A stretch of 64,000 bases of DNA, taken from the NCBI GenBank assembly GCA_965207225.1, contig CBDBLV010000004.1:448001-512000 (forward strand), given 5' to 3'. Positions within the stretch are counted from its first letter, which is position 1, and each line of letters starts with the position of its first letter. This DNA is from Dehalococcoidia bacterium (GTDB lineage: Bacteria > Chloroflexota > Dehalococcoidia > Plut-88900). The notes beneath the pieces are model-generated. The model saw only the letters and a list, made by a program, of their open reading frames with translations. It had not been told where the DNA came from and did no database searches. Below are positions 8,259-64,000 of this stretch, piece after piece. The position numbers were made by a program, and so were the translations under genes.

Positions 8259-8533
8259 ACACCCCAGGCCACCGACCCCATACCTCGGCGCCCATCACAA
8301 TGCAGGATCAAAGGAGTACCATGAGCCGCATAAGCCTTCACAGGCCCCGTCTCAGCCGAGCGGCATCCCGCCGCCCGGCCCCCGGCACGCGCCTCTTCCT
8401 TGGCTCCTTTCCCCACCCCGTCCTGCACCTCAACACCCACAACAAGCGCTGCCCAAAGGACCAACGCCTTGGCCTTCGCAGCGATCAATCACCGCCCCGC
8501 CCTCAATACTGCCTGGTCCCCGTGACCGGTAAC

Positions 8534-8962
8534 GGAAGGTTCCTAAACTCAAATCGGCTAGCTCTACTTCGTGGCCAACACCGTAGAATCAGCGCCCCCG
8601 TTCCAGGTCGAATCTACGTAGCCGGCATAGACCTCGCCGGCGAATCGGAACAACCCGGAGAAGTCCGTCTCCAGGGCTTTAAGCCCACCCAAGACTCCAC
8701 CGTCGTAACTATCGGCGAACTCCAAATGCTTGATGACGGCTTCGGCTCCAAACTGCCCTCCCTCACCGTCGTCGAGCGCCATTGGTGGACGGGGAAGCCC
8801 CACACCGAGACCTTCTCGGGCCTCGTCCACCTTCTCAAAAACGTCTGGGGCTGCCGCAGGGTGGTCGTCGACGCCATTGGCACTGGCGTAGGCGTAGCCG
8901 CCTTCCTGCCTAAGACCATAGGACCTTCCATCGTAGTTCCCTTCACCTTCACAGCCCAGACC
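8534..8962 (+). pseudogene. phage terminase large subunit C-terminal (RNase H-like nuclease) fragment
   Basis: IYVAGIDLAG...DSTVVTIG...RRVVVDAIGTGVGVAAFL...VVPFTFT resembles the terminase nuclease domain. No ATPase domain is present, and the frame runs on into repeat DNA. Confidence 0.6.
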
Positions 8963-55511: not shown

Positions 55512-56780
55512 TGTATAGACCGGGGAGAAGGGTAACAGTTGTTCGGGGAGATAGGTAACACATTTCCTACTTACTTAGATCTATGGTAGCAATGGGTTGT
55601 ACGGAGAAGAAGACTTTCCACGTGCCGTCTTTGGACCCGGGTCTAAGGGCGACACACTTTCTTCGGAAGGCTTTCCCCACCTTAAAGGTTCTGCCCTTGA
55701 ACCATATGCGGCCGTTGACGTCGACCTTGCGCACCTGGTCATTGGTGTCGTACTCGATGGCAGGCAGGACCTCGGGGAAGGGCCGGGGGCTGGGGGTGTA
55801 TCGGCTGGAGGGGGTATTGAGGTCCAGGGCATGGTGAGGACGCTGGAGGTTGTAGAAGTCTCTCCAGGTGTCGAAGCTGCCCTGGCAGTGGTGCAGGTCT
55901 GTGTAGATGCTTCCCTGGAGCAGTTCGCTCTTGAGGGACTTGTGGAAGCGTTCAAGCTTGCCGAGAGTCTGGGGGTGGTGGGGTCTGCTGTGGATCACCC
56001 TGACTCCCAGTTGCAGCAACCAGACGGTCAAGGGCGTGAAGGGATGGTAGAGGTCGTGGCCCCAGGGGGCGCCGTTGTCTACCAGCATAGTGACGGGCAT
56101 GCCGTAACGGCGGAATACAGAGGTGAGGTGGCCACGGACCGTGGGAGTCTTCTCATCTGGGCAAGCCCTTACAGCCAGGGAGAACCTGGAGTGATCATCG
56201 AGGATCGTCAGAGGGTGACATCTTCCACCACTGGACATGGGTATATGTCCCTTGAAGTCCATCTGCCAAAGGTCGTTGGGCCGGGGGTGCTCAAAGCGGC
56301 GGTAGGGCTTGTGCTTGAGGCTCTGGGCCGGCTCTATAAGTCCATGTCGACTGAGGATGGCTGTGACGGTGCTCTTGGCCGGTACACCGCCGTACCCTCT
56401 GTCCTTGAGCATCTTGGCCAGCACATGACCCCCCTTGGTGGGGAACTCCCTTCGAAGGTCTATTACCAGTTGCTCCATATCGGCGCTGGTGCGGTTCGGC
56501 GAGTGATGGGGACACTTGGAAAGGTCTTCCAGACTCCCCTTACCCCCTTCCAGGTATCGTCTCAGCCACTTGTAGCCGGTCTTACGGCTGATCCCGCTGC
56601 GCAGACACAGCTCACTCATGTTCACACCCTCGGACTGGGCCAGGACCACAAACTCTTCCCGTTGAGACATGACCGTTCCAACCTTCCATGGCATAGAAAC
56701 CCTCCTCTTACAGAATCGCTATGCCTAATGGTGTAACCTATGTCTCCGAACATGTGTAACCTATGTCCCCGGTCTATACA
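55512..56780 (-). mobile_element. IS481-family insertion sequence, 1269 bp, copy 2
   Basis: Same length, IRs and transposase as 9415-10683; 5-bp TSD GGCCC (55507-55511, 56781-56785). Confidence 0.95.
55567..56694 (-). CDS. IS481 family DDE transposase
   Basis: Protein identical to 9470-10597. Confidence 0.95.
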   Translation of the reverse strand: MPWKVGTVMSQREEFVVLAQSEGVNMSELCLRSGISRKTGYKWLRRYLEGGKGSLEDLSKCPHHSPNRTSADMEQLVIDLRREFPTKGGHVLAKMLKDRGYGGVPAKSTVTAILSRHGLIEPAQSLKHKPYRRFEHPRPNDLWQMDFKGHIPMSSGGRCHPLTILDDHSRFSLAVRACPDEKTPTVRGHLTSVFRRYGMPVTMLVDNGAPWGHDLYHPFTPLTVWLLQLGVRVIHSRPHHPQTLGKLERFHKSLKSELLQGSIYTDLHHCQGSFDTWRDFYNLQRPHHALDLNTPSSRYTPSPRPFPEVLPAIEYDTNDQVRKVDVNGRIWFKGRTFKVGKAFRRKCVALRPGSKDGTWKVFFSVQPIATIDLSK

Positions 56781-59373: not shown

Positions 59374-59514
59374 AAGTTCACAGGTGAAACCTCGGGCCCC
59401 GACCCGACTTAAATCTCTAAAATAAGGCGATCAACTCCTAACCAAAGTTTAACTCAGTTACCGCATTAACCGGCTCCCCTCACCCGCACCTACAGGCAAC
59501 ACCAATACCTCTTT

Positions 59515-60587
59515 CCCGACTCCCATCGGGAACCCATCCCCAGGGGCAGGGGTTCCGTTCGTCCTGAGCGGAATCGAAGAGCCTGCCCCGAGTCCCTAGA
59601 GGGGGAGAGGGGGACCAAGGGGGTGAGGGCTCCCTCCCCAGACGGAGGGGCCGCTCATGCTGAGGTCACTCGAAATATGAGCGGGGGGCGGCCCGCGCAT
59701 TGCTCAACTATCGCCTTGCCCTACCACCAACCCGCGCCCCTCCTTTTCCATTCCGATGCCCCGCGAGGAATCTCAAACGCCTTTCACTAAACCCACCCTG
59801 TTCCTTACCTCTCCCATCCTTCCATCGCACCCCCCTTGGTAACGAATTAACAGAAATGCTGCCTAGCAGCATTTCTGATAATTCAATAAAACAGGGCGGG
59901 CGGGTGGGACTCCTATTATTCCCGATGGGTCGGGGAAAGGGTCCTCTCTTTCCTTTCCACCCCCCCGACCCGGGCCTCATCCCTTCCTTCTCCCTCAAAG
60001 TACTGAACTGGAGGCAGCTGTCATTCCGATGCCCCGCGAGGAATCTGGGGCGGGGCGCCTCCATCCCCGGTACTGAGATAGAGGCGGAGGTTGGCGCATC
60101 AAAGCCAGCCTCCGCCTTTGTTCTTCTCTCCCTCCACCGTAGGGGTGCCCCTCGCGGGTACCCTGCCCGCCACCCACGCCAAGACTTGCATCGCCCCAAA
60201 ACCGAGCCATCCCCCTCCTCACCAGTACTGAACTAGAGGCAGGCGTGGGTGCGTTGCACCCACGCCTGCCTCTGCTCTTCTTTCCCCCTCTCCCTTATAG
60301 GCCCTAAGAGCCTGCCCCGTACCCCAATACGGGGGAGAGGGGGACCAAGGGGGAGAGGGTTCCCTTGGGGGGCTGGGGGGTATTCCCCCAAAGCCGTACA
60401 TTTGCTCTTGACACAGCTGTCCGACCGTACTATCATACCCTGCGTCCGATCGAACGCTAACTCACATAAGCAAAGGAGGAACCAAAAACCTAAGGGAAGC
60501 CCCCGAGACCCGACACCGAGGACTCAACACCCTAGCCCATCCCAATACCTCTCCCCTCTCTTGTAGGGGCGACCGGCCAATCGCCCT
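59515..60587 (+). repeat. dense cluster of REP-like and composite palindromic repeats
   Basis: Nested insert 59580, CCGCTCATGCTGA..GAGCGG 59651, CATTCCG repeats 59749/60022, long stems 60068 and 60223, GTAG-hairpins 60139 and 60563. Confidence 0.85.
60408..60436 (+). promoter_or_regulatory. near-consensus sigma70 promoter with no cognate ORF
   Basis: TTGACA-17 bp-TATCAT. Confidence 0.65.
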
Positions 60588-60674
60588 CCCTTCTGAGGCG
60601 GGCAGGTTGCGGCACAAGCGAACAGCGCCATCTCCTCATCTTCACGGGTCCCGTGTCCCTTCCCTACCCATCCA

Positions 60675-60984
60675 GGCGATGGAAGGTCCACAACATTAAC
60701 CGGCACGCTCCTCACAAGGGAGCCCTGCCGAAAAACCTCGGGCTATTACGCCCTTGGAAAAATCTCCCCCGTCGTTCCCCTCGGAGATTCCCTTTAACCC
60801 AGCGACGGCAGCGAGAAAACGTGTTCCCCACCCCTCCGAGTGGGTCGAGCCAAACTGAAAAACTGGTGGTAGAGATGCCCTCTGGCGAGAAGTCCTCGCT
60901 TGTCTGCCATGTGACACAGGAACACGGGGCTGAACCAGGCTGGCCTCCCGCCCCCTGAAACTGAGTCCCGGACCTTCCATCGCC
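60675..60984 (+). ncRNA. candidate structured RNA, family not recognised
   Basis: Perfect 15-bp closing IR, at least 6 internal helices, possible pseudoknot, A-rich linkers, G-U pairs favouring the + strand. Confidence 0.5.
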
Positions 60985-61077
60985 GACCCCCTCCAAAACA
61001 GACAAAACGAAAAAGAAAACCCTACAACTGAATGCGGTCGTGATGTCTCTCATAGCCATCCGAACGAGTACACCGCC

Positions 61078-61106
61078 TTGAACCCGAGCCCCCCATCCCC
61101 GATAAT
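61078..61106 (+). promoter_or_regulatory. putative promoter for the MmgE/PrpD gene
   Basis: TTGAAC-17 bp-GATAAT; GGAGGAGG RBS near 61139. Confidence 0.45.
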
Positions 61107-61152: not shown

Positions 61153-62544
61153 ATGAGGGCCACCGACGCCGCGATCGCATTTATCCACAACACCACGCTC
61201 GACGACATGCCGCCCGAGGTGCAACACCTCGGCAAGCGCGCCATTCTCGACACCGTAGGCGTGTCCCTGGCCGCCGCCAGGGACGAGGCCGTAGCCATCC
61301 TATCCGAGACCCTCGCCGGCCGCGGCGGCAACCCCACGGCCACCGTCATCGGCCGCGACCAGCGCGCCGACGCCCTCTCAGCCGCCCTCGTCAACGGCGT
61401 CATGGCCCACGCCCTCGACTATGATGACGTCAACGATTCCTGCATGGGCCACCCCAGCGCCCCCCTCGTCCCCGCCGTTCTCGCCCTCGGCGAAGAGCTC
61501 GGGTCGTCAGGGGCCCAGGTCCTGGAGGCCTTCCTCATAGGCTTTGAGCTCGAATGCAAGCTTGGCCTGGCCATCGGCAACGCACACTACGCCAGGGGCT
61601 GGCACGCCACCGCCACCACCGGCACCATGGCCGCCGCGGCCGCCTGCTCCAAGCTGCTGGCCCTCAACCCCGACCGCATAGGCATGGCCCTCGGCATCGC
61701 CGCCTCTTCATCCGCCGGCATGAGGATCAACTTCGGCACCATGACCAAGCCCTTCCACGTCGGGCAGGCCGCCCGGGCCGGCCTGATGGCGGCCCTTCTC
61801 GCCTCCAACGGCTTCACAGCCTCCGCCGACATCCTTGACCACCCCATCGACTACACTCGCGTCTTCGCCGACAAGGACGAAGCCGACTCCTCCCGCATAG
61901 TTGGCACGTTGGGCAACCCCTGGGACATCGTCTCCCCCGGCCTCGTCGTAAAGAAGTTCCCCTGTTGCAACAGCACCCACCGCACCATCGACGCCACCCT
62001 CGCCCTCGCCCACGAGCACACCCCCTCCCCCGACTCCATCGACAACGTCGTCATCTCCATGCCCCCCGGCGAGGACATCCCCCTCATCTACAGCCGCGCC
62101 ACCACCGGCCTCGAGGGCAAGTTTTGCATGCAGTACTGCGTGGCATCCGCCATCCTGGACCGCAAGGTCACCCTCGACACTTTCCAGCAGGACCACGTCG
62201 ACAGGGAGGAAGTGCAACGCCTCTCAGGCCTGGTCAAGCTCGAATACGATGACACCCAGGAGCCCGTCGTGGTCAACGCTGGCGGCTACATCGACGTCAC
62301 CATCAATATGAAGGACGGCAATTCTTTCACCCGGCGCATCGACAAGGCCCGCGGCACCCCCGAGTACCCCCTCACCGACGAAGAGCTCACCGACAAGTTC
62401 AACTCCTGCGCCGTCAGAACCCTCGACCCCCCCCAGGTCAAACAGGCCGCCTCCCAAATCTTCGCTCTCGATGACCTCTCCGATGTCAGGGATCTGATGG
62501 CCACCATCGCGGCCCCCGCCCTGGCTCCCGCCCGCGGCAGCTGA
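61153..62544 (+). CDS. MmgE/PrpD family protein
   Basis: NGVMAHALDYDD, GHPS, GWHAT, TKPFH.G, KKFPCC. Confidence 0.92.
   Translation: MRATDAAIAFIHNTTLDDMPPEVQHLGKRAILDTVGVSLAAARDEAVAILSETLAGRGGNPTATVIGRDQRADALSAALVNGVMAHALDYDDVNDSCMGHPSAPLVPAVLALGEELGSSGAQVLEAFLIGFELECKLGLAIGNAHYARGWHATATTGTMAAAAACSKLLALNPDRIGMALGIAASSSAGMRINFGTMTKPFHVGQAARAGLMAALLASNGFTASADILDHPIDYTRVFADKDEADSSRIVGTLGNPWDIVSPGLVVKKFPCCNSTHRTIDATLALAHEHTPSPDSIDNVVISMPPGEDIPLIYSRATTGLEGKFCMQYCVASAILDRKVTLDTFQQDHVDREEVQRLSGLVKLEYDDTQEPVVVNAGGYIDVTINMKDGNSFTRRIDKARGTPEYPLTDEELTDKFNSCAVRTLDPPQVKQAASQIFALDDLSDVRDLMATIAAPALAPARGS

Positions 62545-62740: not shown

Positions 62741-64000
<1,260 letters not shown>

Follow-up and report, generated by a model that had tools for sequence, protein, structure and literature searches.

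What is the 310-nt sequence (60675-60984) that lies upstream of a prpD-like gene in this Dehalococcoidia genome, and where does it come from? We analysed it within the window, i.e. the whole stretch of 64,000 nt of DNA, and within its genome (hereafter G000) and those of relatives. An initial annotation had read it as a standalone structured non-coding RNA of the plus strand or a ribozyme-like element, with an orphan retron-like RNA or a degenerate riboswitch as alternatives. The standalone RNA is the best reading of our data and no known family matched it, yet the element belongs to a large, dispersed, promoter-carrying family that seems to derive from a coding gene, and its pseudoknot is probably drawn otherwise.

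The 310-nt element and its unit

Inspection of the sequence shows the perfect 15-bp closing helix (P1, 60675-89/60970-84), and the hairpins and complementarities quoted in the initial annotation all lie where it placed them. The fold has z = -6.5 on the plus strand and -3.65 on the minus strand, and none of 100 shuffles was as stable as the native fold on either strand. The 310-nt fold is real, yet not unique. The claim that G-U pairs work only on the plus strand holds when counted by cells (G-U vs A-C 138 vs 25 in A1; 56 vs 27 in A2) and is mixed when counted by columns (19 vs 10 in A1; 11 vs 12 in A2). Across 34 copies, the stems GTGGTAGA/TCTGCCAT and GGCGAG/CTCGCT are paired in 100% and 97%, and the stem proposed to close this second domain (CGTGTTCC/GGAACACG, 60820-27/60919-26) in only 66.9%.

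No Rfam covariance model overlapped 60675-60984 at E ≤ 5, among families including 6S, ribozymes, riboswitches, GOLLD, ROOL, OLE, HEARO and raiA, and ARAGORN found no tRNA or tmRNA in the window, in agreement with the reported absence of tmRNA, RNase P and SRP hallmarks. When the cores in 20 other loci were compared with Rfam at the gathering threshold, only 5S rRNA and one tRNA were matched. This copy lacks an ORF of its own, and the prpD-like gene does have the promoter candidate ascribed to it (Table 1).

The repeated unit extends in this copy from about 60375 to 61032 (~650 nt) and comprises, in order, a promoter, a Shine-Dalgarno (SD)-like motif, a variable leader, the helix-closed core and an A/C tail of ~48 nt. 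Its promoter is similar to the promoters of the genome's terminase (terL) operons. Open-frame subfamilies have an ATG after the SD, unlike the copy at 60675-60984. The tail mostly occupies 42-53 nt 3' of the core, and no intrinsic terminator was found in the tail of this copy. REP-like mosaics lie upstream of the left-edge hairpin; they are dense in the window (59500-60375) and genome-wide (130-275 matches per motif in the genome, plus 150 TTCAATCAA repeats); even so, searches of the genus revealed no Y1/RAYT transposase.

Table 1. Features of the unit at 60675-60984, its host context and its sibling in the window.
Feature	Position	Strand	Remark
G/C hairpin	60375-60389	+	Marks the unit's left edge approximately; many copies have a similar hairpin upstream
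Sigma-70-type promoter TTGACA-17-TATCAT	60408-60436	+	11/12 consensus match
Degenerate palindrome	60419-60430	+	One mismatch to G[AT]AC-N4-GT[AT]C
AAGGAGG SD-like motif	60473-60479	+	No start codon after it; located in 45/47 copies
Variable leader domain	60493-60665	+	Closed by AGGGAAG/CTTCCCT
REP-like hairpin	60563-60586	+	Inside the leader domain
Structured core, type T0	60675-60984	+	Closed by P1; homologue of terL codons ~228-367
Two 5' hairpins	60701-60753	+	60701-30 and GGGC/GCCC 60740-53; 91.7% and 100% paired, 34 copies
Module A	60763-60816	+	Stems TCTC/GAGA (outer) and 60769-76/60801-08 (inner), plus a large loop
TCGGAG of module A	60781-60786	+	Lies in the large loop
Module B hairpin	60827-60844	+	Loop CTCCGA (60834-39) complementary to module A loop; 85.9% paired
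Domain C	60863-60919	+	CTG/CAG, GTGGTAGA/TCTGCCAT and GGCGAG/CTCGCT; 98%, 100% and 97% paired, 34 copies
Terminal hairpin	60936-60957	+	CAGG/CCTG plus GGC/GCC, C-rich loop; 98.7% paired
A/C-rich, G-poor tail	60985-61032	+	Ends CCC(C/T)ACAAC(T/C)GAA; right edge of unit
Promoter candidate of MmgE/PrpD-family gene (61153-62544)	61078-61106	+	Host context, outside the unit
Sibling unit	8321-8960	+	SD plus ATG, open frame of 366 aa to 9418; related closing helix

A family with shared sites and changing cores

The initial annotation saw no other copy in the window, where a distant sibling occurs at 8499-8960. The genome holds 14 near-full-length copies at 86-100% identity, plus many end-only matches. 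Arm-pattern searches retrieved 48 elements with these arms (18 + 14 + 16; control matches 0), and a terL-derived profile added seven open-frame copies besides two intact terL genes, bringing the related units in this genome to at least 55. We delimited 47 copies at the arm-search stage. Their cores span 198-553 nt and fall into 12 interior types; 39 of the 47 carry a strict sigma-70 consensus, against 1.7% of random windows, and seven type-1 copies have, by eye, an extended -10 in its place. The element before uvrA (G000:C1:69717) is the one copy with a truncated leader. This truncation may stem from an insertion similar to the window ORF at 55567-56694, which by its sequence motifs resembles an IS481-type transposase. 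Four reverse transcriptase (RT) genes occur in G000 (C2:158087, C5:1548409, C5:1671488, C5:1553980), two of them with identical scores and frames of 586 aa. Three further loci (G000:C4:589251, C4:63482 and C5:1625969) carry the same SD-ATG leader, but the body behind it does not resemble terL and lacks the usual arms as closure; at G000:C3:216515-216588 an isolated fragment of a T11/T17 core is fused to a coding remnant at the latter's end.

By its distribution, the family appears to occur in only one Dehalococcoidia genus. The arm motif was found 16-78 times in each of nine genus genomes and 0-4 times in 52 others, and the 53 matches of a genome-collection scan all fell within eight Dehalococcoidia assemblies. 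From the fetched loci, a subset of all matches listed, we extracted 143 cores and dropped four spurious ones; the remaining 139 fall into 25 types, 14 with arms of the GGTCC class and 11 with arms of the AAGACG class. As far as we searched the literature, in part through abstract-level listings, this RNA family is undescribed; the available part of one preprint (bioRxiv 10.64898/2026.10.21.760802) deals with an unrelated Chloroflexota array and mentions neither Dehalococcoidia nor the terminase.

We compared the sites of the elements between relatives. In G008, the closest one, 35 of the 37 anchored elements have a counterpart at the corresponding site of G000; of the two sites scored 'empty', one in fact has an open-frame copy that was not on our list. 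The core is less than 80% identical at 20 of the 35 sites common to both genomes. Sites anchored from G007 were filled in 14 cases (11 with another core) and empty in six; 13 of the 70 elements in the G008/G007 comparison had no anchor. Over all relatives, 49 of 90 anchored sites are filled in G000 and 41 scored empty, some of the latter through paralogue mis-anchoring or unlisted copies. At the site orthologous to that upstream of prpD, three of five relatives carry another core type, and G001 and G006 have an open-frame version with a small terS-motif ORF behind it. We saw free mixing of promoter classes with core types. The presence of differing cores at fixed sites points to gene conversion rather than transposition, and we infer slow gain and loss of units with frequent ectopic conversion between their arms.

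Homology to terL and support for base pairing

A DNA profile built from four intact terL segments of the genus matches the element collinearly, at 60671-60735 (E = 0.0049) and 60740-60898 (E = 1.4e-5). It matches all 34 T0 interiors at E < 1e-3 and at least one member of each of the 14 GGTCC-class types. None of the 11 AAGACG-class core types was matched, hence a terL origin would cover only part of the family; searches for the origin of these cores in the portal, capsid and other G000 genes gave no match. A terL profile from other genera did not match the element. The closing helix is present in register in 16 of 17 intact genus terL genes, and none was seen, judging by eye, in 24 further segments from other genera. 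With eight synonymous shuffles each, hence as rough estimates, z ranged from -1.3 to -10.8 for codons 228-367 of the genus terL, from -1.2 to +2.5 for N-terminal control codons (30-169) and from -2.4 to +1.4 for the core region of eight terL genes from other genera. These comparisons show the core as a homologue of codons ~228-367 of the genus terL, and an excess of fold inside intact terL of this genus only.

Some copies retain the coding frame. The sibling unit at 8321 in the window still codes for a stretch that matches residues ~195-374 of the 462-aa protein P0139 at ~63% identity. In G000, 11 of the 12 ATG-bearing copies that could be tested keep an uninterrupted frame across the core (P(open) 0-0.11 each), as do 12 of 13 in a mixed set. 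In such copies the frame often continues through the downstream REP mosaics, for 190-790 codons. The identity of P0139 as a terminase follows its group: Terminase_6C scored above cut-off in two of eight scanned homologues (P0139 itself had no hit), PHROG terL matches have E from 5e-6 to 1e-4, and portal, terS and major head genes lie nearby. A PDB search with a single TerL sequence returned nothing, a profile search gave only weak terminase matches (E ~0.5), and an AlphaFold model from a single sequence with no alignment was too low to use (pLDDT 34.5).

Of 151 Dehalococcoidia, 98 have a terL-like gene, which outside the genus is nearly always single. Across the class we also observed a module of terS-like, terL, portal and major-capsid genes, mostly single-copy and often split over the chromosome (G000:C5:227569-243400, locus L332; also L333, L334 and L335). 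We take it to be a probable domesticated, gene transfer agent (GTA)-like module, of which we found no description in Dehalococcoidia at the level of literature abstracts. Judging from the outgroups, the change probably went from gene to RNA and not the reverse, and terL may at times have been back-converted by RNA copies. A tree of 41 cores, illustrative only given recombination and no clade test, sets the RNA types mostly apart from terL.

The initial annotation would have been undermined by a lack of covariation among homologues. Within the 34 T0 copies covariation indeed does not exceed shuffles; most stems there do not vary at all, and invariance is commoner among paired inner columns (82 of 124) than among unpaired ones (53 of 156). 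Across core types the inner half of P1 covaries between arm classes, and modules are duplicated or deleted; the terminal hairpin segment is common to several other types. We cut 51 segments spanning modules A and B across types and aligned 32 of them, leaving out 14 redundant T0 rows and five short T8 rows. The model that we scored pairs the two loops, in addition to having hairpin B and, in module A, the inner stem and an outer CTC/GAG stem. Its pairing on the 32 rows is 87.2%, 43 changes are double-sided, and its covariation score was matched by none of 500 shuffles and exceeded all slid controls; the structures were derived from the same sequences as tested, and related rows are not independent. 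In module A the outer and inner stems are paired in 97.9% and 88.9% across types, with compensatory changes, and were picked independently by RNAalifold. These observations support base pairing across core types.

The two candidate pseudoknots share the inner stem and have similar overall scores. The stem that distinguishes the initially proposed H-type pseudoknot (AATCTCC/GGAGATT) has six breaks at one pair and no compensatory change over the 32 modules, whereas the competing model, with its TCTC/GAGA outer stem and TCGGAG (60781-86) facing CTCCGA (60834-39), has some. One pair of the loop-loop helix changes from AU to CG in five related rows, i.e. in a single group and depending on the alignment, and type T8 lacks both loops together. 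We prefer the loop-loop model for these reasons, which give modest support to the predicted pseudoknot 60781-86/60834-39. The pairing of the two loops may form within or between molecules.

Transcription, neighbourhood and possible roles

RNA evidence comes from one sponge metatranscriptome, the only RNA run among the seven with matches. Seven contigs lie on the unit and the adjacent repeat, three of them at ≥90% identity, and the flanking genes have none, which we did not count as silence. On a 19.9-kb rpoBC stretch, the seven listed coding pieces of the same metatranscriptome are ~80-85% identical, against ~96% for its element piece (six differences in 156). These contigs may represent DNA carry-over of a multicopy repeat; coming from one study, as unstranded contigs with a share of 0.11, they lend weak support to transcription of the unit. 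Within the unit's own promoter, the palindrome at 60419-60430 is a possible LexA-like operator. A LexA-like box with at most one mismatch occurs in 86 of 123 element promoters, against 22 of 246 other promoter-like sites. A strict box, the palindrome GTAC-N4-GTTC, lies just after the -10 upstream of lexA (L252, G000:C5) and is a candidate LexA operator for the lineage; none was found upstream of recA and uvrA, and a literature search returned no reference motif.

We tentatively favour the reading that these units form an independent family of structured non-coding RNAs, derived from terL, that act in trans as scaffolds and whose cores are exchanged among fixed sites. The promoter of the unit would produce an independent structured RNA of ~590 nt. 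Its fold would have arisen by overprinting inside the terL mRNA, and an internally shortened operon (promoter, leader and middle of terL) would have been freed from coding and then multiplied, some subfamilies keeping the reading frame and that of 60675-60984 losing its start codon. Gene conversion between the conserved arms would exchange the cores. Working in trans, the RNA would serve as a stably folded scaffold in which P1 provides a constant handle and the hairpin modules are interchangeable, and the contact between the loops of modules A and B would close within one molecule or join molecules; the likeliest partners would be further copies of this RNA or proteins of the domesticated packaging module. 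In several empty/filled pairs the unit stops just upstream of a retained -35 box, and the conservation of these downstream promoters, together with the terminator-like hairpins that follow the tail in 12 of 47 copies, fits independent units. A bolder version, which we hold to be doubtful, is that of an RNA class born by overprinting in the terL of a domesticated GTA-like module and released from its coding frame, with 50-plus modular members assembled by loop-loop contacts and acting on the packaging machine as a pRNA-like partner, a decoy or capsid cargo; the intact gene, the copies with an open frame and the pure RNA would then represent all of its stages within one genome.

The neighbourhood of the units also speaks for a possible, though rather unlikely, alternative: a strong, possibly damage-inducible mobile promoter of a generic kind that would sit, with its structured 5' leader, upstream of host operons; the fold would stabilise or antiterminate the read-through mRNA whatever the core. 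Among the Pfam-identified downstream genes 32 of 35 are co-directional and three opposite (hand count; 13 of 48 unidentified), a cruder ORF count gives 30 same vs 16 opposite (n = 46), and a terminator-like hairpin is missing behind the tail in 35 of 47 copies; co-direction and the missing hairpins fit a cis leader. The 84 neighbouring ORFs scanned (two from the window and 82 from among the 120 that were called near the 48 elements) are functionally unrelated by Pfam and include families of rpoB, nusA, recA, uvrA, leuS and secD, the sites are stable across species, and the open frames of the ATG copies look as if translation shielded read-through. However, downstream promoters are kept at filled and empty sites alike, the other copies do have the terminator-like hairpin, selection against antisense transcription would also produce co-direction, and the fold sits mid-gene in intact terL. 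The C-rich, G-poor tail also resembles a Rho loading site. Another view takes the unit as a selfish or neutral repeat tied to GTA-like packaging, i.e. DNA with a terminase recognition or start site that is transferred by capsids and spread by recombination, the RNA fold being a by-product or self-serving. The promoter type and terL of a packaging operon as source would suit it, as would the 1-4 copies of full-length terL per genus genome, the 38 terS-like cassettes in G011 and the capsid gene found once in 16 of 21 genomes (two weak partial matches in one more). We think this unlikely: selection on pairing, seen both across types and in the coding terL, indicates a single-stranded product, the same arms flank cores not related to terL, and viral contigs gave no match to one 21-nt pattern.

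For two remaining explanations the evidence is far more adverse. Many copies with perfect inverted arms, and the 41 of 90 sites scored empty (some of them wrongly, as noted), recall a MITE-like non-autonomous transposon with the 15-bp arms as terminal inverted repeats. The initial annotation had named many copies flanked by target duplications as the mark of a MITE, and had seen no duplication. The copies are indeed many, but none of 12 distant and five closer empty/filled alignments shows a clear duplication (most pairs are too diverged; one has a CCCCAAAA microhomology). The inverted repeat is internal to the unit: beyond the arms, conserved sequence continues asymmetrically for ~300 nt on one side and ~48 nt on the other. 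The arms correspond to terL codons, sites are largely common with G008, and Y1_Tnp is absent in all nine genus genomes (controls positive), which together make a MITE very improbable. The closing helix, pseudoknot potential and position upstream of genes would suit a ribozyme, an orphan retron RNA or a degenerate ligand-specific riboswitch, to which we give hardly any credence. Nothing supports a ribozyme: neither the element nor the cores of 20 other loci matched an Rfam ribozyme or other such family. A retron is disfavoured by the lack of RT in all 84 neighbouring ORFs and of RVT_1 in six of eight congeners (it is present in two). Co-direction with the downstream gene is as expected of a riboswitch, but the same aptamer at orthologous, coherent genes is not what we found, since close relatives carry different cores before the same gene and the neighbours are unrelated. 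No interior sequence beyond P1 is invariant across classes.

Several known systems resemble the family in part. Correia, ERIC, BOX and RUP elements, REPINs and MITEs are lineage-restricted, intergenic, modular and foldable, and some carry promoters; the units here differ in their internal inverted repeat, stable sites with changing cores and terL homology, as well as in lacking a clear target duplication and a Y1 transposase. HEARO, or omega RNA of IscB/IsrB, comprises multicopy structured RNAs of ~300 nt with pseudoknots, also as stand-alone copies, and has a variable 5' guide. Here the 5' flank is conserved, no such nuclease is encoded in the 84 neighbouring ORFs and the genus lacks the Y1 transposase. 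The prohead RNA of phi29 has two complementary loops able to pair between molecules and is tied to DNA-packaging genes. Sequence and Rfam show no relation, and in our case the partner would be a nuclease-bearing TerL of the conventional type; we use it as an analogy only.

GOLLD, ROOL and OLE are large, ornate bacterial non-coding RNAs of several hundred nt (available part of PMC12286853). As described there, they are similar to our units in size, number of hairpins, predicted loop-loop pairing and link to phage-type genes. Extensive, covariation-supported secondary structure, as in these classes, is found here across types, and within T0 alone not above shuffles. Assembly of RNA alone into multimers by kissing loops is another mark of these classes; here the complementary loops 60781-86/60834-39 might allow it if they pair between molecules. 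The family differs in its 55 or more chromosomal copies, many interchangeable types, restriction to one genus, probable derivation from a coding gene and lack of an Rfam match; GOLLD and ROOL are encoded by phages or prophages, whereas the pattern searched in viral contigs was absent. Putative mobile promoters, a descriptive bin of mostly pairs of 50-100 bp in the part of the source available (Nijveen, Matus-Garcia and van Passel 2012, PMC3575422), are likewise highly similar non-coding stretches that precede unrelated genes of a single genome. Similar non-coding sequence before non-paralogous genes is what our own counts show, outside the -150 to -50 pipeline of that study; in contrast, the unit is ~650 nt long, its fold covaries, its cores can be swapped and its origin has been traced. 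The same source, as far as available, names Correia, ERIC and REPIN among interspersed repeats.

The origin of large structured bacterial non-coding RNAs is mostly obscure, and here apparent stages coexist. Because terL without the fold (in other genera), overprinted terL, open-frame copies and start-less RNA copies are all found, such an origin becomes directly testable, and the family provides many natural recombinants of RNA modules. Even if it were only a promoter-bearing repeat, it would still be an unusual case of site-stable, core-swapping concerted evolution.

We also considered a small ORF (GGRRPGAGAPKGN..KHG) as an obligate partner of the RNA and rejected it, as the loci in which we read it behind a core number only six (G001-G004, G006) and its single homologue in G000 has no core beside it. 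Its PHROG match is weak (E = 0.081) and its AlphaFold model poor (pLDDT 61); viral homologues of its motif are often terS adjoining terL. Small terS-motif ORFs (MPRGGRRPGAGAPKGN..KHG) with their own promoter occur in 38 copies in G011 (L099, L115) and in other genera too, and within the genus they sometimes follow an RNA core. The G011 cassettes had no such RNA in the two loci read, hence amplification may not need the fold. From position 62741 onward the window contains a 16S rRNA gene with an expansion of ~98 nt in its first variable helix relative to the Rfam model.
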